From NCBI GenBank assembly GCA_964440565.1, contig CAYTTB010000006.1:3199-67198 (forward strand): a stretch of DNA of 64,000 nt. Direction: 5' to 3'. Shown one piece after another: positions 1,138 through 30,784 of the stretch (its first letter is position 1; each line of letters opens with the position of its first letter). The DNA is from an uncultured Thermoanaerobaculia bacterium (GTDB lineage Bacteria > Acidobacteriota > Thermoanaerobaculia > Thermoanaerobaculales > Sulfomarinibacteraceae). The notes beneath the pieces are model-generated. The model saw nothing but the letters and a program-made list of their open reading frames with translations. It ran no database searches and was not told the DNA's origin. Both the position numbers and the translations under genes were made by a program.

Positions 1138-3291
<2,154 letters not shown>

Positions 3292-3980
3292 GCCGCGGCC
3301 GTGGCGGGCACCGCGTCGCCCACTGGAGGCGTGCGATGCCGCGCACCCACGGGTTCTCGAGGTACTTCACCGGGATCCACGCCTCGTCGGGGCGGTACGG
3401 AAACAGCGCGAGCCGCACCGGATGTCGAGTCCACCACGTCGGGCCAGAGCGTCACCTTCTCGAGCCCGTGCTCGTCGAAACGCAGCCCGAGCAACGCGCA
3501 GTTCACGCCCAGCACCGCGTCCGGCGGGATGGGCTCGCCCGTCCGCTCCCGGTACATCCTCGCCGCCGCCCTGGCGGTCCCCGGCGGCGCCACCAGCTCC
3601 TGGTGGTAGGTCACGGCGGCCTGGGTCTCGAGGAGCGCGAAGAAGCTCCCCCTCCCCACCGCCTGGAGCCCCACGACGTACAGGCCCTTCCAGCCGCCGG
3701 CGGAGATGGACGGGGGCAGGTCCCGCCCGTTGCCGTGCCGGGCCGGGCCTCGGCTCGCGCAGACACCGCGCCCGGCGGTGGGCATCGCGGGCCCCACTGT
3801 CACCCCGCGGGGCGGCCGGAGGTCGCGACGAGGGACCTCGCCGGAGGGAGGGGCGGTTCGGCGTCTCCGGCGTGAGCCCCCCGGGCCTGCGGCCCCGGGG
3901 GCCGTTCGAACGGCGCCGGAGAGCCGGCGGGTCTCACGGCGCCCGTGCCAGGGCCCCGGGCCGGCGGGGCCGGGAAGGCC

Positions 3981-5237
3981 TCAGACGAACAGCCTGCCGT
4001 TGGCGCTCTTGGCCCGGTCCCAGCGCTCGATGAGGTAGTACTTCTCGTGCTCGAACACCCGGAGGATGTTCTCCAGGTACTCCTCCGCCTCCCGTGCCGA
4101 GTGGCTGCGGGTCTTGTTGACGAACGACAGCACCCGGGCGTGATAGAGCGGGATCAGCGCCTCGAGCAGCGCCTCGCACTCGTCGTCGTGCCCCTCGCAC
4201 CCCTTGTACGCCACCGCGAAGTCGAACAGGACCTTCGCCCACAGCTGGGAACGCACGTAGAACGCGTCCTCCTCCAGGGCGCCGAGCCGCTCCACCTCCG
4301 CCATGACGGGCGCCGTGAGCACCCGCGCCCACAGCTCGCCGTGCCCCTCGAGACCGCGCCGGAAGCTCCGGTGGAGCGCCGCGGTGTCCACCTCCACCGC
4401 CGGCGGCTTCTCGTCCACCCCCAGCCCGAACCCGTAGATCGCCGAGGGGCGGCTCGCCTCGGTGTCCTTCCACAGGTACTCGAAGTCCACCATCAGGTCG
4501 AACAGGGTGGACACCACCTGGGTGAACATCTTCGACAGGTCCGCCGCCGGGTCCTTGGGGCGGTGGATCTTGGGGCTGCCGAGGAACGCCTGGCAGACGT
4601 TGAACCGGCGCGCGATGGCGATGGTGGTCATCCAGATGTCGATGCCGAAGCTCGCGACCTTCTCGTTCCACATCTTCTCGGCCAGGAACGCGCGCGCCAG
4701 GCGCCCGGAGAACCCGAAGTCGCCGCCGATCGGCTGCCGGACGCGCAGCCCGTACAGGGTGCGCAGCATCGGGTAGGCGATGTGGTTGGTGATGGTGCCG
4801 TCGTACTTGTGGCGGAGGTATATCGGGCTCACGTAGTCGAACCGTCCCGTCACCGGCTCCGCCAGCGCCCAGATCCAGCCGGGGGTGATGCTCTTGAGAT
4901 CCGCGTCCACCACCACCACCGCCCGCGCGCCCAGCTCCACCGCCGCCTTGAACAGGTTGCGCAGGTTGTTCCCCTTGCCCCGCACCCCGGGCGGGGTGGA
5001 GATGTACACCTTGGGCACCGGCGTGGGCGTGTCCAGGAACGCCTCCCGGGTGCCGTCCTCGGAGGCGTTGTCCACGTTGATGATGACGGAGGGGACACCC
5101 GGGAAGTACCGGTCCAGCCCCTCGCCCGCCATCGCCGTCGGCAGCGCGATGCTGTCCGCCTCGTTGTACGACGGGATGCCGACGATGATCTCCGCCGACG
5201 TCACGTGCTCCGGGTTCTCCACGATGGGTCGGTCCAC
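3981..5237 (-). CDS. GT-A fold glycosyltransferase (family 2-like; resembles compatible-solute type glucosyl/mannosyl-glycerate synthases)
   Basis: 418 aa. Motifs: IIVGIPSYNEADSI nucleotide-sugar binding start, VDNASEDGT, and VVVVDADL (DXD). The long helical C-terminal domain ends in KYYLIERW. GTG start at 5237. Confidence 0.7.
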   Translation of the reverse strand: MDRPIVENPEHVTSAEIIVGIPSYNEADSIALPTAMAGEGLDRYFPGVPSVIINVDNASEDGTREAFLDTPTPVPKVYISTPPGVRGKGNNLRNLFKAAVELGARAVVVVDADLKSITPGWIWALAEPVTGRFDYVSPIYLRHKYDGTITNHIAYPMLRTLYGLRVRQPIGGDFGFSGRLARAFLAEKMWNEKVASFGIDIWMTTIAIARRFNVCQAFLGSPKIHRPKDPAADLSKMFTQVVSTLFDLMVDFEYLWKDTEASRPSAIYGFGLGVDEKPPAVEVDTAALHRSFRRGLEGHGELWARVLTAPVMAEVERLGALEEDAFYVRSQLWAKVLFDFAVAYKGCEGHDDECEALLEALIPLYHARVLSFVNKTRSHSAREAEEYLENILRVFEHEKYYLIERWDRAKSANGRLFV

Positions 5238-5806
5238 TGCACCCCCCGCGCGATTGTACGGCCGGCCACCCGGACCGGCAACCGCGCCGCCTCCGCCGGG
5301 CCGCCGGCGGCGAGCCAGTTCTCCCCTGGCTCACCGCGGCGCACCCGGCCCTCGGCCACGGACGCACCTCGCTCGCCGGGGCGCCCGTCCCGACGGGCCC
5401 GACCGCGCCTCGCTCCGCGGCCGCTCGAGCCGCGTGACGACCCGCGGCACGGAGCCCGCGCGGTCGGCGGACGGCAGCGTCCACCCCGGACCGGCGGCAA
5501 CGCGCGCGGGCGCGGCGGCCGAGAGCGCGTCGAGGGCACGATCACGGACGCGGGCCCGGAAGCCGTCCCGGAGGTGGGGGCCGTCCCGCCGCAAGAGGAG
5601 TGTCCCCACCTCGACGCTCCGGCGCCGGCGCCGCCAGGGGCCCTCGAGCGGCCGGCGGCGGGGCCCTCGCCGCGCGGTGGTACGCTGGGGCGTGGCCCGC
5701 CCGCCGCGGCGCGGCGCCGGCCGGGAATCGCGCGCCGCCGCCGGCGGTTGCCGCAGGGCGGGAGCCGCCGCAGGGCGGTCGGCCCCGCCGCGAGGAGGAT
5801 CGTGCC

Positions 5807-8551
5807 GTGTCCGTGAACCGAGAGGAGCCGCCGCCGGTCCCGCCGCTGGTGTCGAGCCCGGAGTTCCTCGACGACCTGTACCGGCGGTGGAAGGCCGACC
5901 CCGCCTCGGTGGACGGGGCGTGGCGGTACTTCTTCCAGGGGTTCGAGCTGGCCATGTGCCCGCGCGACTGCGTGTCGGCGGAGCGGGCCCAGAAGCAGTC
6001 ACGGGTGGCGAGCCTGATCTACGCCTACCGCGACATCGGCCATCTCGTCGCCGACCTCGACCCGCTGGCGCCCCCTCCCGGGAGCCATCCGCTGCTGGAG
6101 CTTGCCGCGTTCGGGCTCGACGAGTCCGACCTGGACGAGGTGTTCGACACCGGTCACCTCGCCGGCGCCCCGAGGCGGGCGACGCTCGCCGAGATCCTGG
6201 CGATCCTGCGCGAGACGTACTGCCGCACCGTCGGGGTGGAGTACCTCCACATCCAGGACCCCAGGATCCGGCGCTGGCTGCAGGCAGAGATGGAGCCGCG
6301 GCGCAACCGCCCGCGCTTCCCGCCGGAGCTCCGGCTCGAGATCCTGGAGCACCTCACCGACGCCGAGCTGTTCGAGACGTTCCTCGGCAGCCGCTACCCC
6401 GGCCACAAGCGGTTCTCGCTCGAGGGGGCGGAGGCGCTGATCCCGGCGCTGCACGACGGGATCGTGGAGCTCGCCCCGGAGCTGGGCGTGGAGGAGATCG
6501 TCATCGGGATGGCCCACCGCGGCCGGCTCAACGTCCTCGCCAACATCCTGGACAAGCCGTACGAGCTGATCCTGTCCGAGTTCGAGGACGTGCCGCTGCC
6601 GGACATGTACGGCGGCGACGGCGACGTGAAGTACCACCGCGGGTTCTCCTCCGACCACGTCAGCCGCAGCGGCCGTCCGCTGCACATCAGCCTCGCCGCC
6701 AACCCCAGCCACCTCGAGGCGGTGGACCCGGTGGTGGAGGGGAAGGCGCGGGCCAAGCAGCGCCGTCGCGGGGACACCGAGCGCCGGAGGAAGGTCGTCC
6801 CCGTGCTCATCCACGGCGACGCCGCCTTCGCCGGCCAGGGGCTGGTGGCCGAGACCCTCGAGCTCTCGCAGCTGCCCGGTTACCGCACGGGCGGCACGGT
6901 GCACATCGTGATCGACAACCGGATCGGGTTCACCACCAGGCCGGAGGAGGCGCGCTCCACCCGCTACCCCACCGACGTGGCCAAGATGGTGGACGCCCCC
7001 ATCTTCCACGTCAACGGTGACGACCCGGAGGCGGTGGTGTACGTGACCCAGCTCGCCCTCCGCTTCCGGCAGGAGTTCGGCCGCGACGCGGTGGTGGACA
7101 TCGTCTGCTACCGGCGCCACGGCCACAACGAGGGCGACGAGCCCGCCTTCACCCAGCCGGTGCTCTACGAGCGGATCCGCCAGCACCCCCCGGTGCGGGT
7201 GCTGTACCGCCGTCGGCTGGTGGAGGAGGGGGTGCTCACGCCCGAGGAGGCGGACCGGCGGGCGAAGGAGTTCCGCGAGCGGCTCGACGCCGCCCACCGG
7301 ACGGTCAAGGTCGCCTGCCCCCTTCCCGACCCCGAGGAGCTCGCCTACGGCGGGGTCTGGAAGGGGCTCGACCGGCCGTACCGCCACGATCCCGTGGCCA
7401 CCGGCGTCGCCAGGGCCGACCTGGAGGCCGTGGGCCGGGCGCTGACCACCGTGCCGGACGGGTTCCGGGTCAACCCGAAGGTGGCCCGCCTGCTCGAGCG
7501 CCGCCGCCGCGCCGTGGCCGGGGAGGGGCCGGTGGACTGGCCGCTGGCCGAGCTGCTCGCCTTCGGCACGCTCCTGCTCGAGGGGGTCCCTGTCCGTCTC
7601 TCGGGCCAGGACTCCGAGCGCGGGACGTTCTCGCAGCGCCACGCCGCCTGGTACGACGTGCAGACGCAGGAGCGGTACGTCCCCCTCGACCACATCCGCG
7701 AGGGGCAGGCGCGGTTCTGCGTGTACAACTCGATGCTGTCCGAGGCCGCGGTGCTGGGCTTCGACTACGGCTACTCGCTGGTGGAGCCCCACATGCTGGT
7801 GGTGTGGGAGGCGCAGTTCGGCGACTTCGCCAACGGCGCGCAGGTGATCTTCGACCAGTTCATCGCCGCGGCGCGGGCCAAGTGGCAGCGGTCCTCGGGG
7901 CTGGTGATGCTGCTGCCGCACGGGTACGAGGGTCAGGGCCCCGAGCACTCCAACGCCTACCTGGAGCGGTACCTCGCGGCGTGCGCGGAGGACAACATCC
8001 AGGTCTGCCACCCCACCACCGCCGCCCAGTACTTCCACCTCCTGCGGCGGCAGCTGAAGCGGCCGTTCCGGCTGCCGCTGGTGATCATGACCCCCAAGGG
8101 GATGCTGCGCTCGCCGAAGATGGCCTCGCCGATCGAGGAGCTCGAGCGGGGGCGGTTCCACGAGGTGCTCGACGACCCGGCCCCGCCCGGGGCCCCCGAG
8201 CGGCTGGTGCTCTGCTCGGGGAAGGTGTTCTGGGAGCTCGCCGAGGAGCGCGACCGCGCCGGCGCGCCGGCAGCCCTGGTGCGGGTGGAGCAGCTCTACC
8301 CGTTCCACGAGGAGCTGCTGCGGGAGGTGACGGGCCGGTACGCGGGGGTCCGGGAGGTGGTGTGGGCTCAGGAGGAGCCGGCCAACCGCGGCGCGTGGAG
8401 CTTCATGTTCCCGCGCCTGCTGGAGCTGTTCCCGGAGACGCCGGTGCGGTACGCCGGCCGGCCGCCCTCGGCGAGCCCGGCGACGGGGTCGCTGCGCGTG
8501 CACCGGGAGGAGCAGGCGGCGCTCGTCCGCGACGCGCTGGGGATCGCCTGA
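5807..8551 (+). CDS. sucA: 2-oxoglutarate dehydrogenase E1 component
   Basis: In the frame of ORF 5600..8551. [31 protein letters not shown] is the canonical E1o N-terminus. The ThDP-binding region reads [15 protein letters not shown]...[10 protein letters not shown], and the transketolase-like C-terminus reads [14 protein letters not shown] 5807 lies 8 nt after GAGGAGGA; the upstream part of the ORF is Arg/Pro/Gly junk. Confidence 0.93.
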
Positions 8552-8576: not shown

Positions 8577-9929
8577 ATGACCGTCGAGGTGAAGGTCCCG
8601 TCGGTGGGGGAGTCGGTGGAGGAGGGGCTGCTCGCGGAGTGGCTCAAGGGCGACGGCGAGGCGGTGGCCGCCGACGAGCCGCTCTACGTGCTGGAGACGG
8701 ACAAGGTCACCATGACCGTCAACGCCGAGACCGCGGGACGGCTCGAGATCGTGGTGCCGGCGGGGGAGACCGTGCGGGTGGGCCAGGTGGTGGCCAGGAT
8801 CGATCCCGACGCCGCGGGCTCCACGCCCCCGCGGGAGGAGGCGGCGCCGGCGGCCGGCCACGCCGCGGGGTCCGCCACGCCCCCGCCGGTGCCGGAGGCC
8901 CCGCACCCGGAGCCGGGGCCGCCGCTCACGGTCCCCGCGGGGGCGCCCCAGGCGGCCGCGAAGCTGGAGGCGGCGGCCCACCTCTCGCCGGCGGTGCGCC
9001 GCCTGGTGCTGGAGCGGGGGCTCGACCCCGCCCGCATCCCCGCCACCGGCCCCGGCGGCCGGATCACCAAGGAGGACGTGCTCCGCCACCTCCAGGAGCT
9101 CGACGCCGCCCGCACCGCCCCCGCCGCGGAGGCCCCGGGACCGGCGGAGCCCGCCGGGGCCGCCACGGCTGCCGCGGAAGAGGCCGCGCCGGCCACGGCG
9201 CGCGCCGCCGCCGGGGCGGGCCGTCCCCGGCAGACCCGGCGGAAGATGTCGCCGCTCAGGCTGCGGCTCGCGGAGCGCCTGGTCCAGGCCCAGCGCACCG
9301 CGGCCATGCTCACCACCTTCAACGAGGCCGACATGAGCCGGGTGCTCGAGCTGCGCGCCCGCTGGCGGGAGGCGTTCGAGCGCGAGCACGGGGTGCGCCT
9401 CGGGCTCATGAGCTTCTTCGTCAAGGCGGTGGTGCGGGCACTCCAGGACCATCCCGAGGTCAACGCCTTCATCGAGGGCGACGAGATCGTGACCAACCAC
9501 TACTACGACATCGGGATCGCGGTCTCCACCGAGCGCGGGCTGGTGGTGCCGGTGCTGCGCGACGCCGACCGGCTCTCCTTCGCGGGAATCGAGCGCGGCA
9601 TCGCCACCCTCGCCGAGCGCGCGCGCACCGGGAAGCTCACGCTGTACGACCTCGCGGGCGGCGTGTTCACCATCACCAACGGCGGGGTGTTCGGCTCCCT
9701 GCTCTCCACGCCGATCCTCAACCCGCCCCAGAGCGCGATCCTCGGCATGCACGCGATCCAGAAGCGCCCCGTGGTGGTGGGGCCCGACGACCGGATCGAG
9801 GTCCGCCCCATGATGTACCTCGCGCTGTCGTACGATCACCGCCTGATCGACGGCCGCGAGGCGGTCGCGTTCCTGCGCCGGATCGTGGAGTGCCTCGAGG
9901 ACCCCGAGCGGCTGCTGCTGGAGGTGTGA
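8577..9929 (+). CDS. sucB: dihydrolipoyllysine-residue succinyltransferase (E2o)
   Basis: Lipoyl domain with [10 protein letters not shown], Ala/Pro linker, E3-binding domain ([32 protein letters not shown]), and catalytic domain ending in [13 protein letters not shown]. The RBS GGAGGAGG sits upstream of the ATG. Confidence 0.93.
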
Positions 9930-9930
9930 G

Positions 9931-11325
9931 ATGGGCGAGCGCGACGTGGTGGTGATCGGCGGCGGCCCCGGCGGGTACGTCGCCGCGATCCGGGCCGCCC
10001 AGCTGGGCCTCGGGGTGGCCCTGGTGGACGACGGCCCCGCTCTCGGCGGCACCTGCCTCAACGTGGGGTGCATCCCCTCCAAGGCGCTGCTCGAGTCGAG
10101 CGAGCTGTACTGGGCCGCCCGCCACCGGTTCGCCGGTCACGGGATCCACGTGGAGCCCCGGCTCGACCTCGCCGCCATGCAGGAGCGCAAGCGGCGGATC
10201 GTGGCCGAGCTCACCGCCGGGATCGGCCTGCTCATGAAGAAGCACCGGATCGAGGTGGTGCGCGGCCGCGGCCGGCTGCTGGGCCCGGGCCGGGTCGCGG
10301 TCCCGGGCCCGGAGGGCGAGCGCCTCCTCGAGTGCCGGCACGTGATCCTCGCGATGGGCTCGGTGCCGGTGGAGCTTCCCGGCCTTCCGTTCGACGAGGA
10401 GCGGATCCTCTCCTCCACCGGGGCGCTGGAGCTGCCCGAGGTACCGGAGCACCTGGTGGTGGTGGGCGCGGGGGCGATCGGGCTGGAGCTCGGCAGCGTC
10501 TGGGCCCGCCTCGGGGCCCGGGTCACGGTGGTGGAGGCGCTCGACCGGATCGTCCCCTTCGCCGACCGCCAGCTCGCGAGGCGGCTCCGGAAGGCGCTCG
10601 AGGCGCAGGGTCTCGCGTTCCGCCTGCGCTCGACGGTGGCCGCGGCCGTCCCCGCGGGCGAGGGGCTCGAGGTCACGGTGGAAGGCCCGGAGGGGGCCGT
10701 CGAGACGCTTTCCTGCGACCGCCTGCTGGTGGCGGTGGGACGCCGGCCCGCCACCGCCGGCCAGGGGCTCGCGGAGGCCGGGGTCCGGCTCGACGAGCGC
10801 GGCTTCGTGGTGGTGGATGGGGCCGGCCGCACCTCGGTGGACGGCGTGTGGGCCATCGGCGACCTCACGCCGGGCCCGATGCTCGCCCACCGCGCCTCGG
10901 AGGAGGGGGTGGCGGTGGCGGAGCGCATCGCGGGGCTGCCCGGGCACGTGGATCGCGACCTGATCCCCAGCGTGGTGTACACCGCTCCGGAGCTCGCCGC
11001 GGTGGGCCGCACCGAGGAGGAGCTCGAGGCCGCCGGGGTGCCGTACCGGGTGGGACGGTTCGCGTTCCGGGCCAACGGACGCGCCAGGAGCCTGGGCGAG
11101 GTGGAGGGACTGGTGAAGGTGCTCGCGCACGCCGAGAGCGACCGGATCCTGGGGGTGCACATGCTGGGGCCGCGGGTGTCCGAGCTGATCCACGAGGCGG
11201 TGGTGGCGATGGCGTTCGCCGCCTCCTCCGAGGACCTCGCCCGGATCGTCCACGCCCACCCCACCCTGGCCGAGGTGGTGCACGAGGCGGCGCTCGCGGT
11301 GGAGAGACGCCAGATCCATGGGTGA
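9931..11325 (+). CDS. lpdA: dihydrolipoyl dehydrogenase (E3)
   Basis: FAD fingerprint VVVIGGGPGGYVAA, redox-active disulfide GGTCLNVGCIPSK, and C-terminal interface HAHPTLAEV. It starts 1 nt after the sucB stop. Confidence 0.93.
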   Translation: MGERDVVVIGGGPGGYVAAIRAAQLGLGVALVDDGPALGGTCLNVGCIPSKALLESSELYWAARHRFAGHGIHVEPRLDLAAMQERKRRIVAELTAGIGLLMKKHRIEVVRGRGRLLGPGRVAVPGPEGERLLECRHVILAMGSVPVELPGLPFDEERILSSTGALELPEVPEHLVVVGAGAIGLELGSVWARLGARVTVVEALDRIVPFADRQLARRLRKALEAQGLAFRLRSTVAAAVPAGEGLEVTVEGPEGAVETLSCDRLLVAVGRRPATAGQGLAEAGVRLDERGFVVVDGAGRTSVDGVWAIGDLTPGPMLAHRASEEGVAVAERIAGLPGHVDRDLIPSVVYTAPELAAVGRTEEELEAAGVPYRVGRFAFRANGRARSLGEVEGLVKVLAHAESDRILGVHMLGPRVSELIHEAVVAMAFAASSEDLARIVHAHPTLAEVVHEAALAVERRQIHG

Positions 11326-12424
11326 GGCGCTCGTCGTCCGCTACCGGCTGGCGGTGCCGGACGGCGGCGCCGCCCGCGACCTCGCCCGCCGCATCGCCCA
11401 CGAGCAGACCGTGGAGCTGCCGCCCGCGGCGGTCCCCGGGCACCTCCGCGGGACCGTGCCGGGCCGGATCCTCGCCGTGCGCCCCGCGGGCGGCGCCCAC
11501 CTCGCGGAGATCGCGTACGCACCGTGGCAGGCGGGCCGGGACCTCGCCCAGCTGCTCAACCTGATCTACGGCAACGTCTCCATGTACGGCGGGGTACGGG
11601 TGGAAGCGGTGGCCTGGCCGGAGCCGGTGCTGGCCGCCCACCCCGGCCCCCGCCACGGGCCGGAGGGGCTGCGCCGCCTGGCCGGGGTCTCCCGCCGCCG
11701 GCCGCTGCTCGCCTCGGCCCTCAAGCCCATGGGCCTCGACCCCGCGGCGCTCGCTCGCCTCGCCCACGAGCTGGCCGCGGGCGGGGTGGACCTCGTCAAG
11801 GACGACCACGGGCTCGCCGACCAGGAGCCGGCACCGCTTGCCGAGCGCATCGCGCGCTGCGCCGAGGCGGTGGCGGAGGCCAACGCCCGTCACCGGCGCT
11901 CGGCGCTGTACCTGCCCAACCTCACCGGGCCGCCGTCGCGGATGGAGCGCGGCGCCGAGGCGGCCCTCGCCGCGGGCTGCCGGGCGGCGCTGGTGAGCCC
12001 GCTGCTCGCCGGCCTCGACGCGGCGGCCGCGCTCGCCCGCGACACCGGTCTCGCGCTGCTCGCCCATCCGGCGCTCGCGGGCGCGTTCTTCGGCCCGGAG
12101 GCCGGGATCGCTCCCGAGGTGCTGCTGGGCGAGGTGTTCCGGCTGGCCGGGGCCGACGGCGTGATCTTCCCCGACGCCGGAGGACGGTTCCCGTTCGACC
12201 GCGCCGCCTGCGAGCGCATCGGGACGGCGTGCCGGCGGGAGCTCGGTCCCGTCGGACCCGCCGCGCCGGTGCCCGCCGGAGGGATCGACGCCGCCAGGGC
12301 CGGCGAGGCGGCGCGCCGCTGGGGGCCCGACACCGTCCTGCTCCTCGGGGGATCGCTGCTCGCGACCGGGGATCCGCGCGCCGCGGCGGCGCGGGTGCGC
12401 GAGGCGCTGGAGGAGACGGCATGA
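11318..12424 (+). CDS. RuBisCO large-subunit-like protein (form IV RLP), not a carboxylase
   Basis: 368 aa. RRPLLASALKPMGL aligns to RbcL RPLLGCTIKPKLGL. AAGGVDLVKDDHGL aligns to RGGLDFTKDDEN. LLAHPALAG aligns to the H294 region. PVPAGGID and LLLGGSLL align to PVASGGIH and the GG loop. By-eye alignment gives K177 to M, E204 to H, R295 to P. The ATG overlaps the lpdA stop by 8 nt. Confidence 0.8.
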   Translation: MGEALVVRYRLAVPDGGAARDLARRIAHEQTVELPPAAVPGHLRGTVPGRILAVRPAGGAHLAEIAYAPWQAGRDLAQLLNLIYGNVSMYGGVRVEAVAWPEPVLAAHPGPRHGPEGLRRLAGVSRRRPLLASALKPMGLDPAALARLAHELAAGGVDLVKDDHGLADQEPAPLAERIARCAEAVAEANARHRRSALYLPNLTGPPSRMERGAEAALAAGCRAALVSPLLAGLDAAAALARDTGLALLAHPALAGAFFGPEAGIAPEVLLGEVFRLAGADGVIFPDAGGRFPFDRAACERIGTACRRELGPVGPAAPVPAGGIDAARAGEAARRWGPDTVLLLGGSLLATGDPRAAAARVREALEETA

Positions 12425-12891
12425 GCGGCTCCCGCGTCCTCCGTCACACCGGTTCCGGCTGGGAGGGGGTCGAGCCCACCCGCTACAAGGACCGGCCGGC
12501 GCTCTTCGCCCACATCGTCCGGCACACCCTCCTCGGCGGCGACGCCGACCCGGGGCTGCCGTTCGAGGTGCGCTGCTTCGAGATCGCCCCGGGCGGCTAC
12601 TCGTCGCTGGAACGTCACGAGCACCCGCACGCCGTGGTGATCGTCCGGGGGCGGGGCGAGGTGATCCTCGCCACCGAGGTGCACGACGTGAAGCCCCTCG
12701 ACGCGGTTCACATCGCCCCCGACACCCTCCACCAGCTCCACGCCTCGCGCGGCGAGCCGCTCCTCTTCCTGTGCGTGGTCCCGCGCCACCGCGACCGCCC
12801 GCGCGTCGCCACCCCCGAGGAGGTCCGCGCCCTCGCCGCAGCGAACCCCGACGCCGCCCGGCTGCTGCGGCGGGCGGGGCTCCTGACCTGA
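12421..12891 (+). CDS. cupin-domain protein
   Basis: 156 aa in the frame of ORF 11524..12891, starting at ATG 12421 (ATGA overlap with the RLP stop). Cupin motif 1 is GGYSSLERHEHPHAVVIVRG; motif 2 is VHIAPDTLHQLHA. Confidence 0.7.
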   Translation: MSGSRVLRHTGSGWEGVEPTRYKDRPALFAHIVRHTLLGGDADPGLPFEVRCFEIAPGGYSSLERHEHPHAVVIVRGRGEVILATEVHDVKPLDAVHIAPDTLHQLHASRGEPLLFLCVVPRHRDRPRVATPEEVRALAAANPDAARLLRRAGLLT

Positions 12892-13049
12892 GCGCCCCCC
12901 GGCGAGCGGCCGCCGGGAGCGTCGCCCGGCCCCCGCCGGTGTGCGCCGTCCCGCCCTCGCTGTCCCCCCAGGGGGTCGGTGAGCGTCACCTCGAGCGGCC
13001 GGCGGACGGGCCGGCGCCGGGATCCCGGCGCCGGCGCGCCCTCCGCGTC

Positions 13050-13114: not shown

Positions 13115-14968
13115 ATGAGGGAACGGATCGCTCACTACAGGATCGTGGAGGAGCTCGGCCGCGGTGGGATGGGCGTGGTGTACAAGGCGCTCGAGGAATC
13201 GCTCAACCGGTACGTGGCCATCAAGGTGCTCGGTGCCCACCTCGCGGCCGACCAGGACTACGTGAAGCGGTTCGTGCGGGAGGCACAGGCGGCGGCGGCC
13301 CTCAACCACCCCAACATCATCCAGATCTATGGGATCGGGGAGGAGGGGGGCGAGCACTACTTCGCGATGGAGTACGTGGACGGCGTGTCGCTGCAGGAGC
13401 TGATCCGGCGCGAGGGCCGCATCCCCAACCCGAGGGCGGCGGCCATCGTCCTGGAAGCCGCCAAGGGGCTCGCCGCGGCCCACGACCGCGGGATCATCCA
13501 CCGCGACATCAAGCCGGCAAACATCATGATCGACCGCCAGGGGATGGTGAAGATCGCCGACTTCGGGCTCGCCCTCCGCCCCGCGGACCAGACCCGCATC
13601 ACCGCCTCGGGTCTCCTGATGGGCACGCCGGGGTACCTCGCGCCGGAGCAGTGCCTGGACGGCGAGGTGGACCGGCGGACGGACATCTACGCGCTGGGCG
13701 TCACCTTCTTCGAGGCGCTGGCCGGCAGGCCGCCGTTCCAGGCCGACAGCCCGGCCTCGCTGATCCGCAAGATCGTGGACGGCGAGGCCCCCGACATCGC
13801 CGAGCTCGCGCCCGACGTGGACGAGGAGACGCGGGAGATCCTGGCGCGCATGATGGCGAGGGACCCCGGCGAGCGGTACCAGACGTGCTACCAGCTGGCG
13901 GCGGACCTCAAGAGCTACCTCGCGCGCCACGGCGGCGAGGAGATCGGCGCCGTGGCTCCCGCTCCTCACGCCCACGGGGCACCCGCGGACGAGGCCGCGC
14001 CCACCACGCCGGTTCCCAGCGGGCCTGGCGGGCCCGAGGCGGAGGCCCGGCGCGGGGTGCCCGCCGCGCTCCTGGCGGTGCTGCTCCTCGTGGTGCTCGG
14101 GACGGCGGGCGCCGGGGTGGTGGCGTGGCGGGCGGGATGGCTGGCCGGTGTGGGCCGGACCCTCGCCTCCGTACTGCCCGGAGGCTCCGGGCCGGACAGC
14201 TCCGGCACCTCCCCCGGGGGCGCCGCGGCCGACACCCCGCCACCGGCGGTGGCCGCGACGGAGACGGAGCTCGCCCCCGGAAGCGACGTGGCGTTCCAGG
14301 GTGCCGCCGCCCCGCAGGGCGAGGCCACCGGCGGCACGATCTCCCCGCCGGCCGGGGCCGCGCCGTCCAGCGAGGAAGGGCCCGCGGTGGCCGGCGGCGG
14401 CACCGTGGAGCTGGTGGGTGGGCGGCGGACGGCGGAGCCCGAGCCCGGGGCTCCGCCGCTCCACCCGCGGCCGGGCCCCGAGGAGCCGCTTCCACCGGTG
14501 GGCGGCCCCGCGACCGCGCCGGCGCCACCGCCGCCGCGGGGGGTGGCGGTGGTGGACCTGGGCGAGCCGCTGTTCGGCGGCGCCGCCGAGGCGTTCGTGG
14601 AGCGGGAGCTGGCCAGCCGCGGTGTCGAGGTGGTGGACGAGGCGGGGTGGTCCGACGTGGGTGCCCGGCTCGCCGCCGGTCGGCTCGCCGCACCCGAGGC
14701 GCTCGAGCTCACCCGGGGCCGCGTCGCCGCGGCGGTGCTGATCCAGGTGGAGCCGGTGGGCGAGCGGCAGCTGCGCTACATGGGGCGCTCGGACACCGCC
14801 TGGACCGCCGACGTCACCGTGACCGCCTTCGACCCGGAGACCGGGGCCTCGCTCGCGCCGCCGTGCCGCGTCCGGCTCGAGTACACCACCCTCTCGGCCC
14901 AGCGCGTCGCCGAGCAGAAGCTCGCCGACTGCGCCTGGAGCCTCGCGGACGCGCTGCTGCGCCGCTGA
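13115..14968 (+). CDS. transmembrane Ser/Thr protein kinase (Hanks type)
   Basis: Kinase motifs: GRGGMGVVYKA, AIKVL, HRDIKPANIMI, DFGLA, GTPGYLAPE. One TM segment (ALLAVLLLVVLGTAGAGVVAW), a Pro/Ala-rich linker and a C-terminal extracytoplasmic domain. RBS AGGAG precedes the ATG. Confidence 0.9.
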   Translation: MRERIAHYRIVEELGRGGMGVVYKALEESLNRYVAIKVLGAHLAADQDYVKRFVREAQAAAALNHPNIIQIYGIGEEGGEHYFAMEYVDGVSLQELIRREGRIPNPRAAAIVLEAAKGLAAAHDRGIIHRDIKPANIMIDRQGMVKIADFGLALRPADQTRITASGLLMGTPGYLAPEQCLDGEVDRRTDIYALGVTFFEALAGRPPFQADSPASLIRKIVDGEAPDIAELAPDVDEETREILARMMARDPGERYQTCYQLAADLKSYLARHGGEEIGAVAPAPHAHGAPADEAAPTTPVPSGPGGPEAEARRGVPAALLAVLLLVVLGTAGAGVVAWRAGWLAGVGRTLASVLPGGSGPDSSGTSPGGAAADTPPPAVAATETELAPGSDVAFQGAAAPQGEATGGTISPPAGAAPSSEEGPAVAGGGTVELVGGRRTAEPEPGAPPLHPRPGPEEPLPPVGGPATAPAPPPPRGVAVVDLGEPLFGGAAEAFVERELASRGVEVVDEAGWSDVGARLAAGRLAAPEALELTRGRVAAAVLIQVEPVGERQLRYMGRSDTAWTADVTVTAFDPETGASLAPPCRVRLEYTTLSAQRVAEQKLADCAWSLADALLRR

Positions 14969-15035: not shown

Positions 15036-16295
15036 GTGGAGAGGGCGCGGCTCGAAGGAAAGGGGGGTGACGTCCCCGGGGGCGCGTCGGCGCCCGCCGG
15101 GCGCGAGGGCTCCATCCGCGTGGGGGTCCTCACCACCTCGTACCCGGTGGAGGACGGCTCGGCGAGCGGGATCTTCGTCCAGCGCCTCCTGCGGAGCTTC
15201 CCGTCCTCCATCGAGCCCACGGTCCTCGCACCCGCCCCCCCGCACCGGTCGGGGTGGGTGGAGGGGGCCCGCCCTCGCGTGTTCGCGTTCCCGTACGCGC
15301 CCCCCCGCTGGCGCCGTCTCGCCCACGAACCCGGCGGGATCCCCGTGGCGCTCCGCAGGAACCCGCTGCTGTGGCTGATGGTCCCCCCGTTCCTCGCGGC
15401 GTTCCTCGCCGCCGCGCGCCGGCTCGCCCGCGAGTCGGACCTGCTCCTCGCCAACTGGGCCCCGAGCGGTGCCGTGGGCGGGGTGGCCGCCCGGGCCGCT
15501 GGCGTGCCGCTCGTGACCGTGCTGCGCGGCGAGGACGTCACGGCGCTGGCCCGCTCCCGGTGGCGCCGGGCCGCCGTCGCGGCGGCGCTCGCCCGGAGCG
15601 ACCGGATCGTCTGCGTCAGCGAGGCGATCCGGGACGCGGTGATCCGGGCGTTTCCCCGCCACCGGGACCGCATCGTGTTCATCCCCAACGGCGTCGCCGC
15701 GGCCGATCCGCCCCATCGCCCACGGCGTCGCGGGGCGCCCCTCACCGCCATCACCGTGGGTAGCCTCGTGCCGAGGAAGCGGCTGGACACGGTCCTCCAC
15801 GCCGTGGCCTCCCTCCCTCGGGAGGACGCCGTGCAGGTCCTAGTGGTGGGCGACGGACCGCAGCGGAGCGAGCTCGAGCGCCTCGCCTCCAGCCTCGGGC
15901 TCGTGCGACGGGTCCGGTTCACCGGGATGGTGGCCCCCGAGGAGGTCCCGCGCCGTCTCGCCACGGCGGACGTCTTCGTGCTCGCCAGCGAGAGCGAGGG
16001 ACGCCCCAACGCCCTCCTCGAGGCGATGGCCGCCGGGCTTCCCGTGGTGGCCACCCGCATCCCGGGTGTGCGGGAGCTGGTGGACCACGGCGTGACGGGG
16101 TTCCTGTTCGACGTCGGCGATGCCGCCGGGCTGGCCGCCGCCCTCGGCCGGCTCCGCGACGACCCGGGTCTGAGAGCACGGCTCGGAGCCGCCGGCCGCC
16201 GGAGAATCGCGGAGCTGGGGCTCACCTGGGAGCGCACGGGGCTCGCGTACGCCCGGCTGTTCACCGAGGTGCTCGCCCGGTGGCGTGCGGGGTAG
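15036..16295 (+). CDS. GT4-family glycosyltransferase
   Basis: The C-terminal GT-B motif is SESEGRPNALLEAMAAGLPVVATRIPGVRELVDHGVTGFLF (the E-X7-E region). The start is uncertain: GTG 15036, or GTG 15120 giving MGVLTTSYP. Confidence 0.8.
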   Translation: MERARLEGKGGDVPGGASAPAGREGSIRVGVLTTSYPVEDGSASGIFVQRLLRSFPSSIEPTVLAPAPPHRSGWVEGARPRVFAFPYAPPRWRRLAHEPGGIPVALRRNPLLWLMVPPFLAAFLAAARRLARESDLLLANWAPSGAVGGVAARAAGVPLVTVLRGEDVTALARSRWRRAAVAAALARSDRIVCVSEAIRDAVIRAFPRHRDRIVFIPNGVAAADPPHRPRRRGAPLTAITVGSLVPRKRLDTVLHAVASLPREDAVQVLVVGDGPQRSELERLASSLGLVRRVRFTGMVAPEEVPRRLATADVFVLASESEGRPNALLEAMAAGLPVVATRIPGVRELVDHGVTGFLFDVGDAAGLAAALGRLRDDPGLRARLGAAGRRRIAELGLTWERTGLAYARLFTEVLARWRAG

Positions 16296-16298
16296 CCG

Positions 16299-18197
16299 AT
16301 GTGCGGCATCGCGTTCCTCCTCGATGGACGTGCCCCGCGCGACCGGCGACGGGAGCGGATGGCCGCGGCGCTCGCGTGCCTCGCCCACCGCGGGCCCGAC
16401 GATCGGGGGCTCTGGGACGACGAGGTGGTCACGGTGGGGCACCGCCGGCTCTCCATCGTGGACCTCCGGGGGTCCCGGCAGCCGATGGTGGACCGCTCCG
16501 GCCGCTGGGTGCTCACCTACAACGGCGAGATCTACAACTACCGCGAGCTGCGGCGGGAGCTCGAGCCGCGGTGGACGTTCTCCACCCGCGGCGACACCGA
16601 GGTCCTGCTCGCCGGCCTGGCGCTCGAGGGGCCACGGTTCCTGGAGCGCGCCGAGGGGATGTGGGCGTTCGCCCTCTGGGACCGGCTCGAGCGGCGCCTG
16701 CTCCTGGGCCGCGACCGGTTCGGCAAGAAGCCGCTGTACTACCGTCTCCTTCCCGGCGGCCTGTGCGTCGCCTCGGAGCTCGCGGCCCTCGCCGCCCTGG
16801 ACCCGTCGTGCTGGGAGGAAGACCTCGACAGCACCGCCGACTATTTCCGCTACGGCTTCTACCTGCCCGGAACCACCGCGTACCGCGGCGTCCGCGAGGT
16901 GCTGCCCGGTCACACGGCGCGCTGGGCGGAGGGGACGCTCAGCCAGGAGCCGTACTGGCGGCTGCCCACCGGGCCGTTCGCCGGCTCGAAGGCCGACGCC
17001 ATCGCCGCGCTCCGGGAACGCCTCGAGGCGAGCGTCCGCCTCCGGCTGGTGGCCGACGTGGAGGTGGGGGCGTTCCTCTCCGGCGGGGTGGACTCGTCGC
17101 TGGTGAGCGCCCTGGCGGCGCGCGAGCTGGCCGGGGACGGACGGCGGCTGAAGACCTTCACCATCGGCTTTTCCGAGTGGAGCTTCGACGAACGGGCGTA
17201 CGCCCGCCTGGCGGCGCGCCACGTCGGCAGCGAGCACGTCGAGGAGGTGCTCCCCGGCTGGGACGAGGGCCGCCTGGAGGAGCTGCTCCTCCGTCATCTG
17301 GGGCAGCCGTTCGGCGACTCCTCCATCCTGCCCACGACCCTCGTCTCCGAGGTCGCCTCGCGGCACGTGAAGGTGGCCCTCTCCGGCGACGGGGGCGACG
17401 AGCTGTTCAGCGGCTACCAGCGGTACCAGGCGCGCGTGCTGCTGCGCTGGTACCTGGCCACCCCGTCGGCGGCCCGCGCGGCGGTGGAGCGGGTGGTCCG
17501 GGCGCTCCCGGAGCCTGCCGTCCACCACAGCCGCAGCCTCCTCAAGAAGGCGCACCTGTTCGTCCGCGCGGCTCGGCGCGCCGATCCCGACGTGCCGGAG
17601 CTCATCCCCCGCCTGTTCACCGAACCCGAGCTCGCGCGCCTGGTGCCGGATCTCGCCCGCCGTGGGCACCGCCCGCCGGCGCTGCCGGAGGCTCCCCATC
17701 TCGACGACGTGCTCCGCATGATGGCGATGGACGCGCTGGTCTACCTCCCCCAGGACATCCTCGTCAAGGTGGACCGCGCCTCGATGGCGTGCTCGCTCGA
17801 GGCGCGAGCCCCGTTCCTCGACTCCCGGCTCGCCTCCCTGGCGTTCGCCGTCCCCCGCCGGTGGCACCGCCGGGGCGGGCGCGGGAAGTGTCTGCTCCGC
17901 GAGGCGTTCCGGGACCTCCTGCCGCCCGCGATCTGGCGGCGCCGCAAGCAGGGGTTCGGCGTCCCGCTCGGCACCTGGTTCCGCGGCACGCTGGGCGACG
18001 CCCTCCTGCAGCTCGCGGGGGAGGATCCGGGGCCCGTGGCGCCGACCGAGCTCCGGGCGCTGCTCGCCGAGCACCGCGCGGGAGCGGCGGACAACGGGTT
18101 GCGGCTCTGGCCCGTGTACGCCTACCTGCTGTGGCGGCGGCACGGCGGGCGCCCGCACGGCGAGGTCCGGCCTTCCGGGAGGGGAGCGGGACCGTGA
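16299..18197 (+). CDS. asparagine synthase (glutamine-hydrolysing)-type amidotransferase
   Basis: MCGIAF Ntn nucleophile Cys2, YNGEIYNY, and the PP-loop SGGVDSS. 632 aa. It starts 3 nt after the preceding stop. Confidence 0.9.
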   Translation: MCGIAFLLDGRAPRDRRRERMAAALACLAHRGPDDRGLWDDEVVTVGHRRLSIVDLRGSRQPMVDRSGRWVLTYNGEIYNYRELRRELEPRWTFSTRGDTEVLLAGLALEGPRFLERAEGMWAFALWDRLERRLLLGRDRFGKKPLYYRLLPGGLCVASELAALAALDPSCWEEDLDSTADYFRYGFYLPGTTAYRGVREVLPGHTARWAEGTLSQEPYWRLPTGPFAGSKADAIAALRERLEASVRLRLVADVEVGAFLSGGVDSSLVSALAARELAGDGRRLKTFTIGFSEWSFDERAYARLAARHVGSEHVEEVLPGWDEGRLEELLLRHLGQPFGDSSILPTTLVSEVASRHVKVALSGDGGDELFSGYQRYQARVLLRWYLATPSAARAAVERVVRALPEPAVHHSRSLLKKAHLFVRAARRADPDVPELIPRLFTEPELARLVPDLARRGHRPPALPEAPHLDDVLRMMAMDALVYLPQDILVKVDRASMACSLEARAPFLDSRLASLAFAVPRRWHRRGGRGKCLLREAFRDLLPPAIWRRRKQGFGVPLGTWFRGTLGDALLQLAGEDPGPVAPTELRALLAEHRAGAADNGLRLWPVYAYLLWRRHGGRPHGEVRPSGRGAGP

Positions 18198-19363
18198 CCC
18201 CACACGTGCGCCTCGCGTTCGTGGTCTCCTCGCTCGCGTGCGGGGGGGCCGAGCGGGTCGTGCAACTGCTCTCGGGCGGCCTCGCGGAACGGGGGCACGA
18301 GGTCACGGTGATCACCACCACCGAGCGAGAGGACTTCTTTCACCTTCCTCCCGGGGTCGACCGGATCCGGATCGGGCTGGTGCGGTACGTGGAGGACCCG
18401 TACCCGCGGCTCGCCGATCCGCCTGCCGTCGTCCCCCTGCGCGCGATCCGGGGTGTGGTCCGCCTCCGGCGCACTCTCTCCTCCCTCCGGCCCGATCTGG
18501 TCATCGCCTTCACCGACCGGATCGCGGTGCTCACGCTGCTCGCCGCACGGGGCCTGGGGATCCCGGTGGTGGCGAGCGAGCGCTCCGACCCGGCGCTGAA
18601 GCCGCTGGGACCGGCATGGCGCCTCCTGCGGCGGGTGCTGTACCCGTCGGCCGCGGCCCTGGTGTGCCTCAGCCACGGGGTGGCGTCCCGCTTCACCTGG
18701 CTTCCCGCCGACCGGTGCCTCGCCATCCACAACCCGGTGCCCCCGCCTCCACCCGACGACGGATCGCCGCCGCCGCTTGGGCTCGCCTCCGGCGGGTACG
18801 TGCTGGGGATGGGGCGCCTCGCCCACGAGAAGGGGTTCGATCTCCTGCTTCGCGCCTACGCCCGATCGCTCGACCGGGTGGATCCGGGTCCCCTCGTGAT
18901 CGCGGGGGAGGGCGAGGAGCGCCCCCGTCTCGAGACGCTCGCGGCCGAGCTCGGCATCGCCTCGCGGCTCGTGCTGCCCGGTGCGGTGCGGGACCCGTGG
19001 CCCCTGCTCCGCCACGCCGCCTTCCTCGTGCTCTCCTCGCGGTTCGAGGGGTTCGGCAACGTGCTGGTGGAGGCGATGGCGTGCGGCCGTCCCGTGGTCG
19101 CCTTCGCCTGCCCCTCGGGCCCGGACGAGATCGTGGAACACGGCCGGTCGGGGCTGCTGGTGCCGCCGGGGGACACCGCCGCCCTGGCGCGGGCGATGGC
19201 CCGGCTCGCCGCCGACCCCGGCCTCCGCCGGAGGATGGGCGAGGCGGCGCGGGAGCGTTCGCGGGCGTTCTCGCTCGAGCGGATCCTGGATCTCTGGGAG
19301 GACCTCGTGATCGGGACCTTCGCCTCGAGCCCCGGCATCCCCGGGCGGGAGCGGCACCGGTGA
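18194..19363 (+). CDS. GT4-family glycosyltransferase (paralog of 20232..21356)
   Basis: In the frame of ORF 16280..19363 from GTG 18194 (GTGA overlap with the upstream stop). N-terminus: RLAFVVSSLACGGAERVVQLLSGGLAERGHEVTVITT. C-terminus: SSRFEGFGNVLVEAMACGRPVVAFACPSGPDEIVEHGRSGLLVP. Confidence 0.85.
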   Translation: MTPHVRLAFVVSSLACGGAERVVQLLSGGLAERGHEVTVITTTEREDFFHLPPGVDRIRIGLVRYVEDPYPRLADPPAVVPLRAIRGVVRLRRTLSSLRPDLVIAFTDRIAVLTLLAARGLGIPVVASERSDPALKPLGPAWRLLRRVLYPSAAALVCLSHGVASRFTWLPADRCLAIHNPVPPPPPDDGSPPPLGLASGGYVLGMGRLAHEKGFDLLLRAYARSLDRVDPGPLVIAGEGEERPRLETLAAELGIASRLVLPGAVRDPWPLLRHAAFLVLSSRFEGFGNVLVEAMACGRPVVAFACPSGPDEIVEHGRSGLLVPPGDTAALARAMARLAADPGLRRRMGEAARERSRAFSLERILDLWEDLVIGTFASSPGIPGRERHR

Positions 19364-20235
19364 GAGCCGGCCGGGCTCGGATCCCCCGGACGCACCGCGC
19401 GCTGCGCGCCGTGATGCGGGCGCTCTATGCGCGGCGCGGTCCCCGGACGCTGGCGCACCTTCTCCGCCCGCTGCTGCCCGGGTCGGGCTGGGTCTGGATC
19501 GAGGACTTCGACGGCGATCTCCGCTTTCGCTGCAACCTCGACGAGCACATGGGCTCGTACATCTACTGGCGCGGCGCCTACTCCTGGCGGCAGCTGCGGG
19601 TGCTGGACCGGATCCTGGAGCCGGAGATGGTCTTCCTCGACGTCGGCGCCAACCAGGGCGAGTTCACCGTCTTCGCCGCCAAGCGCCTCGTCCGGGGCAC
19701 GGTCCACGCCGTGGAGCCGATGTCCGGGATGCGGCGCCTCCTCGAGATGAACGTCCGCGCCAACGGGTTCACGAACGTCCGGGTCCACCCCGTGGCGCTG
19801 TGGCGCGGCGAGGGGCGGGCGACCCTCTACACGCGGCCGGGGAGGTTCCTCGACAGCTGCCGCCACGACGGCCTCGGGACGCTGTTCCGCTCCGAGCACC
19901 GTCCCGCCGCCGTCGAGGAGGTGGACGTCACGACCCTCGACCGGTGGGCGGAGACGGTGGACCTCGAGCGGCTCGACGTGGTCAAGCTCGACGTGGAGGG
20001 AGCGGAGCTCGGGGTCGTCCAGGGCGGTCTGGCCACCCTCGAGAGGTTCCGGCCAGTGATCCTCCTCGAGGCGAACCGGGACACCGCGGACGCTGCGGGG
20101 TGGCAGCTGGAGGAGCTATTCCGGCTCCTCGAGCCGTGGTACACGTTCGAGGCGATCACGAGCTCGGGGCGCTGCCGTCCCGTGCGCCCCGAACGGCTCG
20201 GCAGGCTCCAGGAGGTGCTGTGCCGCCCACGATGA
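19360..20235 (+). CDS. FkbM-family SAM-dependent methyltransferase
   Basis: In the frame of ORF 18238..20235. Contains FLDVGANQGEFTVFAA (SAM motif I of the FkbM family) and VDVVKLDVEGAELGVVQG. GTG 19360 overlaps the upstream stop; ATG 19414 is an alternative start. Confidence 0.75.
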   Translation: MRAGRARIPRTHRALRAVMRALYARRGPRTLAHLLRPLLPGSGWVWIEDFDGDLRFRCNLDEHMGSYIYWRGAYSWRQLRVLDRILEPEMVFLDVGANQGEFTVFAAKRLVRGTVHAVEPMSGMRRLLEMNVRANGFTNVRVHPVALWRGEGRATLYTRPGRFLDSCRHDGLGTLFRSEHRPAAVEEVDVTTLDRWAETVDLERLDVVKLDVEGAELGVVQGGLATLERFRPVILLEANRDTADAAGWQLEELFRLLEPWYTFEAITSSGRCRPVRPERLGRLQEVLCRPR

Positions 20236-30079: not shown

Positions 30080-30784
30080 ATGGGACGGTGGCGATACACC
30101 CTGATCGCGCTGGTGGCGGTCGCGGTGGGGATCGCGTCGGTGGTGCTGGCGGGGTCGGTGGCCGGCACCAAGCACGATCTCTCGACCAACTTCGACCAGT
30201 ACTCCAACCGCGTGTGCGTGTACTGCCACACGCCACACTTCGCCAACACCACGTTGAGCTACCAGGCCCCGCTGTGGAACCGCTACGTGGACGTCTCCAA
30301 GACGTTCACGCCGTACTCGAGCGACACCATGGACACCACCCCGGGCGACGTGCGGACCACGGTCTCCATCCTCTGCCTCGGCTGCCACGACGGCACGCTG
30401 GGGACCGCGGTGGTCAACGGGTACACCGGCAGCGACAAGCACGACCTGGTCAACGCCCCCGGCCCCGGCGGCATCCCCGACACCACCTCCTGGCCCAACT
30501 GCGAGCGGTGCCACCCCGACAAGTACCACGGCGGCCCACCCGTGCAGTGGATCGGGACCGACCTCTCCAACGATCACCCCATCACCATCTCCTACCCGAC
30601 CCCCTCGCAGGACCCCGACTTCACCACTCCCCCCGATCCCGTCAGCGGCTGGAGCGACGTTCCGCTCTATGACGGTCGCATCGAGTGCCCCACCTGCCAC
30701 GAGCCCCACGACGCCACGTACGCCCCGTTCCTGCGGATGGACAACCAGAACAGCGCCCTCTGCACGCGCTGCCACGTCAAGTGA
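30080..30784 (+). CDS. small pentaheme c-type cytochrome (paralog family with 51018..51665 and 55436..56116)
   Basis: 234 aa with an N-terminal signal/TM. Five CXXCH motifs: CVYCH, CLGCH, CERCH, CPTCH, CTRCH. Shared family motifs: GTKHDLS, VCVYCHTPH, PLWN, LCLGCHDGT, GTDLSNDHPI, and the C-terminal NSALCTRCHVK. Confidence 0.85.
   Translation: MGRWRYTLIALVAVAVGIASVVLAGSVAGTKHDLSTNFDQYSNRVCVYCHTPHFANTTLSYQAPLWNRYVDVSKTFTPYSSDTMDTTPGDVRTTVSILCLGCHDGTLGTAVVNGYTGSDKHDLVNAPGPGGIPDTTSWPNCERCHPDKYHGGPPVQWIGTDLSNDHPITISYPTPSQDPDFTTPPDPVSGWSDVPLYDGRIECPTCHEPHDATYAPFLRMDNQNSALCTRCHVK

Follow-up and report, generated by a model that had tools for sequence, protein, structure and literature searches.

A RuBisCO-like protein and cupin behind sucA-sucB-lpdA in an uncultured Thermoanaerobaculia bacterium: a probable MTA-isoprenoid-shunt-type module

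What a RuBisCO-like protein (RLP) does at the end of a 2-oxoglutarate dehydrogenase operon, and how it came to be there, are the questions raised by a 64,000-nucleotide stretch of contig CAYTTB010000006.1 (assembly GCA_964440565.1) from an uncultured Thermoanaerobaculia bacterium. This whole stretch, with a G+C content of 74%, is referred to here as the window. Its RLP gene follows sucA, sucB and lpdA and is itself followed by a cupin gene. A sequence-only reading of the window had proposed that the RLP and the cupin perform a salvage reaction resembling Rhodospirillum rubrum's MTA-isoprenoid shunt (MTA, 5'-methylthioadenosine), and had singled out two features as unfamiliar: a histidine in place of the RuBisCO residue E204, and co-transcription with the suc genes. 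The analysis reported here favors, as the likely explanation, an MTA-isoprenoid-shunt-type module whose place behind sucA-sucB-lpdA would reflect a rearrangement specific to this genome. The assignment draws on homology, on the clade and its signature residues, and on the conserved pairing of the two genes, from which substrate and chemistry are inferred. The five genes and the two overlaps that join the last three of them are as follows; the cut-offs for sucA, sucB and lpdA are NCBIfam equivalog cut-offs, and all three proteins pass them.

5600-8551, + strand: sucA, 2-oxoglutarate dehydrogenase E1 (NF006914, 1220 bits against a cut-off of 764; match from residue 87, true start probably downstream of 5600)
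8577-9929, + strand: sucB, E2 succinyltransferase (NF004309, 532 bits against a cut-off of 449)
9931-11325, + strand: lpdA, E3 dihydrolipoyl dehydrogenase (TIGR01350, 527 bits against a cut-off of 408.8)
11318-11325, + strand: overlap of the lpdA stop and the RLP start, putative rearrangement junction, 8 nt common to both genes (ATGGGTGA)
11318-12424, + strand: RLP, DeepYkr clade, 368 aa (PF00016, 69.6 bits against a cut-off of 30.1)
12421-12424, + strand: overlap of the RLP stop and the cupin start (ATGA)
12421-12891, + strand: cupin, Rru_A2000 family, 156 aa (PF07883, 40.8 bits against a cut-off of 27.2)

The RLP belongs, by sequence and predicted structure, to the DeepYkr clade. Searches with phmmer and Foldseek and a neighbor-joining tree all set it nearer to the characterized protein of Protein Data Bank (PDB) entry 3qfw than to YkrW, Photo or NonPhoto RLPs or to RuBisCO of forms I-III. 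In phmmer, 3qfw is the best PDB match (1e-65, 226 bits), and the runners-up are of the MtnW type (1e-41). The remaining scores are 147 bits for 4nas, 142 for the MtnW enolase 2oek, 112 and 102 for the Photo RLPs 2qyg and 1ykw, 111 for the form III RuBisCO 2cwx and 70 for the NonPhoto RLP 3nwr. An AlphaFold2 model of the RLP (pLDDT 94, pTM 0.92, from an input alignment of 27 sequences) retrieves only RLPs and RuBisCOs among its top Foldseek matches, led by 3qfw, "Rubisco-like protein from Rhodopseudomonas palustris", with TM-scores of 0.91/0.95 and a root-mean-square deviation (rmsd) of 1.5 Å. Since 2qyg carries the annotation rlp2 of this organism, 3qfw is read as R. palustris RLP1 (RPA2169). 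RLP1 is a DeepYkr-clade 5-methylthioribulose-1-phosphate (MTRu-1-P) 1,3-isomerase, as demonstrated both in vivo and in vitro (PMC5893883), and the same activity is predicted for the window RLP.

The tree behind this placement is distance-based, carries no support values and leaves out the R. rubrum RLP sequence. It unites 85 family sequences, namely the window RLP, 3qfw, 78 of the 80 homologues from species representatives and the five closest relatives from metagenomes, as a monophyletic group separate from spinach RbcL, MtnW (2oek) and 4nas. Within this group, the window RLP is sister to the RLPs of two related loci, L083 and L086. The earlier assignment to form IV is supported, and the placement among form IV clades that had been called for yields the clade of a characterized isomerase. 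A characterized clade whose members lack cupins would have counted against the shunt; in this family, 41 of 85 related loci have a cupin adjoining the RLP.

Active-site residues point the same way. Canonical positions were mapped in an 88-sequence MAFFT alignment by spinach RbcL numbering, whose reference was checked against 1ir1/8ruc (100% identity over 475 residues). The window RLP keeps E60 (as E29), N123 (N86), K175 (K136), K201 (K161), D203 (D163) and H294 (H250), together with the glycine loops G380/381 (G321/322) and G403/404 (G344/345). It replaces E204 with H164, R295 with P251, H298 with A254, H327 with I283, K334 with R290 and S379 with A320, and K177 is missing, falling in a one-residue alignment gap next to M138. 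The by-eye alignment in the sequence-only reading, with K175, K201, D203, H294 and the glycine loops retained, histidine at E204 and proline at R295, is borne out here, and its methionine at K177 is as valid a description as a gap beside M138. Its verdict that the protein cannot be a carboxylase stands on these residues as well: seven of the 11 members of the catalytic set (K175, K177, K201, D203, E204, H294, R295, H298, H327, K334 and S379) are replaced or deleted, which rules out a carboxylase.

The histidine at position 204, regarded as an unfamiliar feature by the earlier reading, is on the family alignment a signature of the clade rather than an anomaly. The resulting KDDH motif occurs in 83 of the 85 family members, the characterized R. 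palustris enzyme 3qfw among them, while proline at 295 and arginine at 334 occur in all 85. The clade signature taken from these 85 sequences, 3qfw included, comprises N123, K175-P176, absence of K177, K201-D-D-H, H294-P295, R334-F335 and a length of ~365-385 aa; the corresponding features of the window RLP are N86, K136-P137, K161-D162-D163-H164, H250-P251, R290-F291 and 368 aa. All family-invariant residues (N123, K175, P176, K201, D202, D203, histidine at 204, H294, proline at 295 and arginine at 334) are present in it. Of the 58 columns with 90% or higher conservation across the family, it retains 56; the median member deviates at one column and 3qfw at four. Degeneration or pseudogenization after relocation is ruled out by these conserved columns, at which the window RLP does better than 3qfw.

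One relative departs from the signature. The L086 RLP (3103-4254, protein P0004) reads SVLSPPPPPGG where the near-identical cluster members P0123 and P0125 read AVLAHPSLAGG at the H294 motif. The probable cause is an error of assembly or sequencing local to that contig, rather than a real loss of the catalytic histidine.

The cupin matches the same pathway. Its PDB matches are 3ibm (4e-35), 3kgz (3e-26) and 3jzv, which is Rru_A2000 of R. rubrum (2e-24), with other cupins at 1e-5 or worse. An alignment of 46 cupins, made up of the window protein, 42 cupins from RLP loci (almost every one immediately next to the RLP) and three PDB proteins, contains ten invariant residues, all of them found in the window cupin: R51, E64, H66, H68, H70, G77, D94, H104, F116 and C118. 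These include an E-x-H-x-H-x-H motif (E64, H66, H68, H70), a later histidine (H104) and the cysteine of an FLC motif (C118), presumably the metal ligands and a nucleophilic cysteine. Rru_A2000 is the R. rubrum 1-methylthioxylulose-5-phosphate (MTXu-5-P) methylsulfurylase, which uses glutathione in vivo (PMC4334135, PMC5893883), and the window cupin is predicted to be a methylsulfurylase of this family. The match to PF01050 is weak (18.6 bits against a cut-off of 23.6). The alternative raised earlier, a cupin of an unrelated family such as a sugar isomerase of the adjoining glycan locus, finds no support and is ruled out for a homologue of Rru_A2000 that travels, and is co-inherited, with the RLP.

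RLP loci in other genomes tie the family to MTA salvage. A scan restricted to a single genome for each species turned up at least 587 genomes that encode a relative; 80 loci were retrieved, and five close relatives from metagenomes bring the context census to 85 loci. In 41 of these, across many phyla, the RLP is followed within 500 nt by a cupin, so that the RLP-cupin pair appears widespread, with the RLP motif in at least 587 species-level genomes and an adjacent cupin in about half of the loci sampled. MtnA is encoded within 10 kb of the RLP in 11 loci, one of which, L046, has the arrangement RLP-cupin-MtnA. This recurrent linkage to MtnA and MtnK ties the RLP family to MTRu-1-P as a substrate. 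A variant occurs in ~21 loci, where genes for the N and C subunits of a split transketolase lie directly upstream of the RLP, no cupin is present, and MtnK and MtnA are often found further up; examples are L062 (5695-11047, Chloroflexus sp. MS-G), L030, L039, L052, L058, L074 and L080, among others. The transketolase linkage hints that the RLP product meets another fate in these loci, possibly cleavage of MTXu-5-P by transketolase. No description of this variant was found in the literature searched.

The two reactions of the shunt have been demonstrated in vivo and in vitro for RPA2169 and its adjacent cupin RPA2170, and for Rru_A1998 and Rru_A2000 (PMC5893883, PMC4334135). By analogy, MTA, a by-product of S-adenosylmethionine (SAM), would be converted to 5-methylthioribose-1-phosphate by MtnP, or by MtnN and MtnK, and then to MTRu-1-P by MtnA, with the genes for these steps located elsewhere. 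The RLP would isomerize 5-methylthio-D-ribulose-1-phosphate to 1-methylthio-D-xylulose-5-phosphate through a 1,3-isomerization. The cupin, together with a thiol reductant, would then strip off the methylthio group, releasing methanethiol along with 1-deoxy-D-xylulose-5-phosphate, or DXP, an isoprenoid precursor, and the methanethiol would be recaptured into methionine. The proposal that the RLP-cupin pairing signals an R. rubrum-type shunt thus gains from a link stronger than first supposed, given an RLP in the 3qfw clade and a cupin homologous to Rru_A2000. A shunt module of this type would be extended to an uncultured high-GC lineage, and no new biochemistry would be implied unless the suc genes are functionally coupled to it.

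The layout described in the sequence-only reading, with the RLP ATG 8 nt inside the end of lpdA and the cupin ATG on the RLP stop, is confirmed by the coordinates of the open reading frames. The five genes run in the same direction with spacings of 25, 1, -8 and -4 nt. The description of the RLP as "translationally fused" to the operon holds in part: the RLP overlaps lpdA and its translation is probably coupled to it, while the two remain separate open reading frames in different frames. The RLP start at 11318 is the furthest upstream available in frame, and the conserved first beta-strand (residues 5-11), seen in both the alignment and the AlphaFold2 model, requires it, which makes the start and the overlap firm. 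A candidate ribosome-binding site, GGAGAG, precedes the RLP start at 11301-11306. A scan found no promoter-like or terminator-like site anywhere from sucA through the cupin gene; the sole promoter-like match of the scanned stretch lies upstream of sucA on the minus strand (5281-5253). An Rfam search of the whole window returned no match, including no SAM or other riboswitch. Co-transcription of the RLP and cupin genes with the suc genes by read-through is likely, as inferred from this arrangement. An assembly chimera at the lpdA/RLP junction is ruled out by an independent metagenome contig from JGI, L002 (99.78% identical, 9 mismatches), which covers sucB-lpdA-RLP-cupin.

The 223-nt gap after the cupin gene contains an inverted repeat at 13000-13045 (23-nt arms, 87% complementary, no spacer, core GCCGGCGCCGGGATCCCGGCGCCGGC). 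It is a possible terminator of the five-gene string, without a U-tail. The folding of the cupin-kinase spacer is no more stable than that of shuffled sequences (z = -0.41).

The nearest relatives show how the pair may have reached this position. Two genes that flank the five-gene string in the window serve as synteny markers.

3981-5237, - strand: GT2/MGS_GT glycosyltransferase (Pfam)
13115-14968, + strand: Ser/Thr protein kinase (Pfam Pkinase), 3' of the cupin

The RLPs most similar to that of the window are 57-60% identical to it. In L083, L086, L088, L089 and the short contig L090, the order is GT2/MGS_GT, RLP, cupin, with the GT2 gene immediately preceding the RLP in the same orientation and no suc genes. 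A Ser/Thr kinase follows the cupin in L086 and L089 and a helicase does so in L088, whereas L083 ends too early to tell. L083, L088 and L089 have a saccharopine dehydrogenase gene upstream of GT2, and the first two of them also have RecD2 beyond it. The RLP and cupin genes also overlap in L083 and L086. In tblastn, the window GT2 is 80% identical to those of L083 and L086, and the window kinase is 75% identical to the L086 kinase; these identities point to GT2-RLP-cupin-kinase as the ancestral order. The present genome has GT2 in inverted orientation, separated from the RLP by sucAB-lpdA. The region downstream of the kinase differs in the relatives.

The relatives' RLPs carry 13-15 additional N-terminal residues and have an upstream spacer of their own of 80-160 nt. 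The window RLP starts four residues ahead of its first conserved strand, with its ATG inside the last lpdA codons. The alignment of Lpd to TIGR01350 reaches residue 463 of 464, which makes lpdA full-length and not extended. Together, these features place a breakpoint at the very 5' end of the RLP gene, with loss of the native upstream region. The rearrangement would have removed both this region and the N-terminal extension, leaving an RLP start within the last codons of lpdA, and the RLP would now most likely be transcribed by read-through of the suc operon and translated by coupling. Because the nearest relatives with the same flanks carry no suc genes there, the suc linkage is best read, from this comparison of gene orders, as a rearrangement specific to this genome rather than a conserved functional operon. 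Co-transcription with suc, which the earlier reading had flagged as unfamiliar, is no feature of the system: SucA is encoded within 10 kb of the RLP in none of the 85 loci, and the synteny check that the reading had proposed shows the linkage to be unique to this genome, a result by which, on the reading's own terms, this part of its idea falls. In two Chromatiaceae loci, SucB/Lpd-like genes occur at a distance of more than 4 kb from the RLP, without SucA. The linkage would illustrate the attachment of a two-gene module to a housekeeping operon by rearrangement, with a new overlapping start codon arising in the process.

Two side observations concern the same relatives. The RLP (58-60%) and the cupin (65-67%) are more diverged from their L083 and L086 counterparts than are GT2 (80%) and the kinase (75%); judged by these identities, the pair evolves faster than its neighbors while still keeping all family-invariant residues. 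In three other relatives (L084:894-7101, L085:2077-8342 and L087:795-7023), the stop of a regulator gene with XRE/HTH and M78-peptidase domains overlaps the RLP start, the cupin follows, and genes for isocitrate lyase and malate synthase diverge from the regulator, making this a second case of an RLP-cupin pair added onto a central-carbon locus. One further relative has a GFO/IDH oxidoreductase upstream of its RLP-cupin pair.

Several points weigh against the shunt and rearrangement account. The RLP is only ~39-43% identical to the characterized R. palustris RLP1, and the cupin just 41% identical to Rru_A2000 (3jzv). In the neighbor-joining tree, 3qfw branches closer to the transketolase-associated subclade than to that of the window RLP. 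A search of the ~40 genes in the 64-kb window returned no mtnP, mtnN, mtnK or mtnA; in characterized organisms, too, these genes are unlinked to the pair (RPA4820/4821 versus RPA2169/2170; PMC5893883). The 1,3-isomerization of MTRu-1-P to MTXu-5-P or 5-methylthioribulose-5-phosphate (MTRu-5-P) and the thiol-dependent cleavage of MTXu-5-P are predictions by homology, and the argument for suc co-transcription consists solely of gene spacing and the absence of detectable signals. Subclades that have different partners, cupin or split transketolase, make some functional drift plausible, and with identities near 40% and no mtn genes in the window the same chemistry might serve another main substrate, either a different 5-substituted ribulose-1-phosphate or a keto-sugar phosphate, for example 5-deoxyribulose-1-phosphate from radical-SAM 5'-deoxyadenosine. 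Such a shift, the foremost rival, is nonetheless doubtful, as the clade-invariant active-site residues of both proteins are all retained, the enzymes that make MTRu-1-P, MtnA and MtnK, are the recurrent non-cupin neighbors (including in L046), and the only known role of the cupin, methylthio removal, would be pointless on a deoxy sugar. Classical methionine salvage offers another role, that of the MtnW/YkrW-type 2,3-diketo-5-methylthiopentyl-1-phosphate (DK-MTP-1-P) enolase. The top NCBIfam matches of the RLP are indeed MtnW models, yet their scores fall far below the equivalog cut-offs (NF007095, 175 bits against 409; TIGR03332, 134 bits against 513.6), the tree separates the RLP from 2oek and 4nas, and no mtnB, mtnX or mtnD lies nearby. 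At the N123 column, MtnW has a lysine (K98 in Geobacillus kaustophilus MtnW, which we take to be the general base of the enolase), whereas the window RLP (N86) and the whole family (85 of 85) have asparagine; at position 204, MtnW has glutamate and the window RLP histidine (H164). On cut-offs, tree and these two columns, an MtnW identity is rejected, and its probability is close to nil.

The second set of alternatives accepts the shunt and gives the suc linkage a function. Dihydrolipoamide or Lpd might provide the cupin with its thiol reductant, or succinyl-CoA might supply O-succinylhomoserine for recapturing methanethiol as methionine. Packing of the five genes is tight, stops and starts overlap, and no promoter- or terminator-like site was found from sucA through the cupin gene; the junction is present in an independent assembly; the cupin reaction requires a thiol reductant, glutathione in R. 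rubrum (PMC4334135); and the three relatives with the isocitrate lyase/malate synthase regulator couple the pair to another central-carbon locus. A functional linkage is improbable all the same, given its occurrence in 0 of 85 loci, nearest relatives that share the flanks and lack suc, upstream neighbors of the pair that vary widely among relatives, and no precedent found in the literature searched. In its strongest form, the attachment would be adaptive, matching the shunt to respiratory tricarboxylic acid cycle flux through the 2-oxoglutarate dehydrogenase transcript, with the complex also serving the shunt by way of reductant or O-succinylhomoserine; this form seems very improbable. Were it true, dihydrolipoamide or Lpd would provide the reductant for an organism that may lack glutathione, and the regulator coupling in the three relatives would be a second wiring of MTA salvage to central carbon metabolism. 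A shunt-type module displaced by a genome-specific rearrangement is retained as the likely reading.

Other genes also lie in the window. Downstream of the kinase, a glycan/exopolysaccharide locus (15036-23604) encodes two GT4 glycosyltransferases, an asparagine synthase, an FkbM methyltransferase, a Polysacc_synt flippase and a sulfotransferase. Several multiheme cytochrome c genes, one for a product of 1518 aa and two for smaller proteins with paired CXXCH motifs, together with a ResB/CcsA-like cytochrome c assembly pair, occupy 30777-41054, 50736-51665 and 55436-56116; a B12-binding radical SAM enzyme lies at 32058-33854 and a GAF-HD protein at 30777-31967. The cytochrome c, radical SAM and GAF-HD genes have no connection to the RLP-cupin finding. 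A polyprenyl synthetase gene (60982-61989, - strand) is ~48 kb from the pair, too far to argue a linkage with a DXP-producing shunt.

Among known systems, authentic RuBisCO (forms I-III) shares with the window RLP its fold, the carbamylatable lysine K201, D203, H294 and the glycine phosphate-binding loops. Unlike RuBisCO, the window RLP lacks K177, E204, R295, H298, H327, K334 and S379, and its N-terminal domain is truncated. MtnW/YkrW (G. kaustophilus 2oek, Bacillus subtilis 2zvi) likewise has the RuBisCO large-subunit fold, K175, the carbamate lysine K201, D203, H294 and P295, has lost K177, and acts in MTA/methionine salvage, as is predicted for the window RLP. As a DK-MTP-1-P enolase, however, MtnW has lysine at N123, keeps E204 and is ~40 residues longer, whereas the window RLP has asparagine and histidine at these positions and falls in a separate clade. 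The transketolase-associated subclade, represented by Chloroflexus sp. MS-G (L062) and Alkalispirochaeta alkalica (L030), belongs to the same RLP family, has the same invariant residues and is linked to MtnK and MtnA, and hence to MTRu-1-P. Its loci differ in having no cupin and a split transketolase directly upstream, and the window RLP lies outside this subclade.

The closest counterparts are the pairs of R. palustris and R. rubrum. The window pair differs from them in its ~40% identity, in lacking an upstream region of its own, being appended to sucAB-lpdA with an 8-nt overlap, and in its host, an uncultured 74% GC bacterium that the nearest RLP homologues by themselves would place, with probability rather than certainty, in Acidobacteriota. 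Like R. palustris RLP1 (RPA2169, 3qfw) and R. rubrum Rru_A1998, the window RLP is short (~370 aa) and carries KDDH, K175, P295 and R334; its model superposes on 3qfw with an rmsd of 1.5 Å. The cupin, like R. palustris RPA2170 and R. rubrum Rru_A2000 (3jzv), belongs to the same family and has the same invariant histidine/cysteine set. In all three organisms, the cupin gene stands beside or near the RLP gene, RPA2169 and RPA2170 being adjacent and Rru_A1998 and Rru_A2000 one locus tag apart (PMC5893883).

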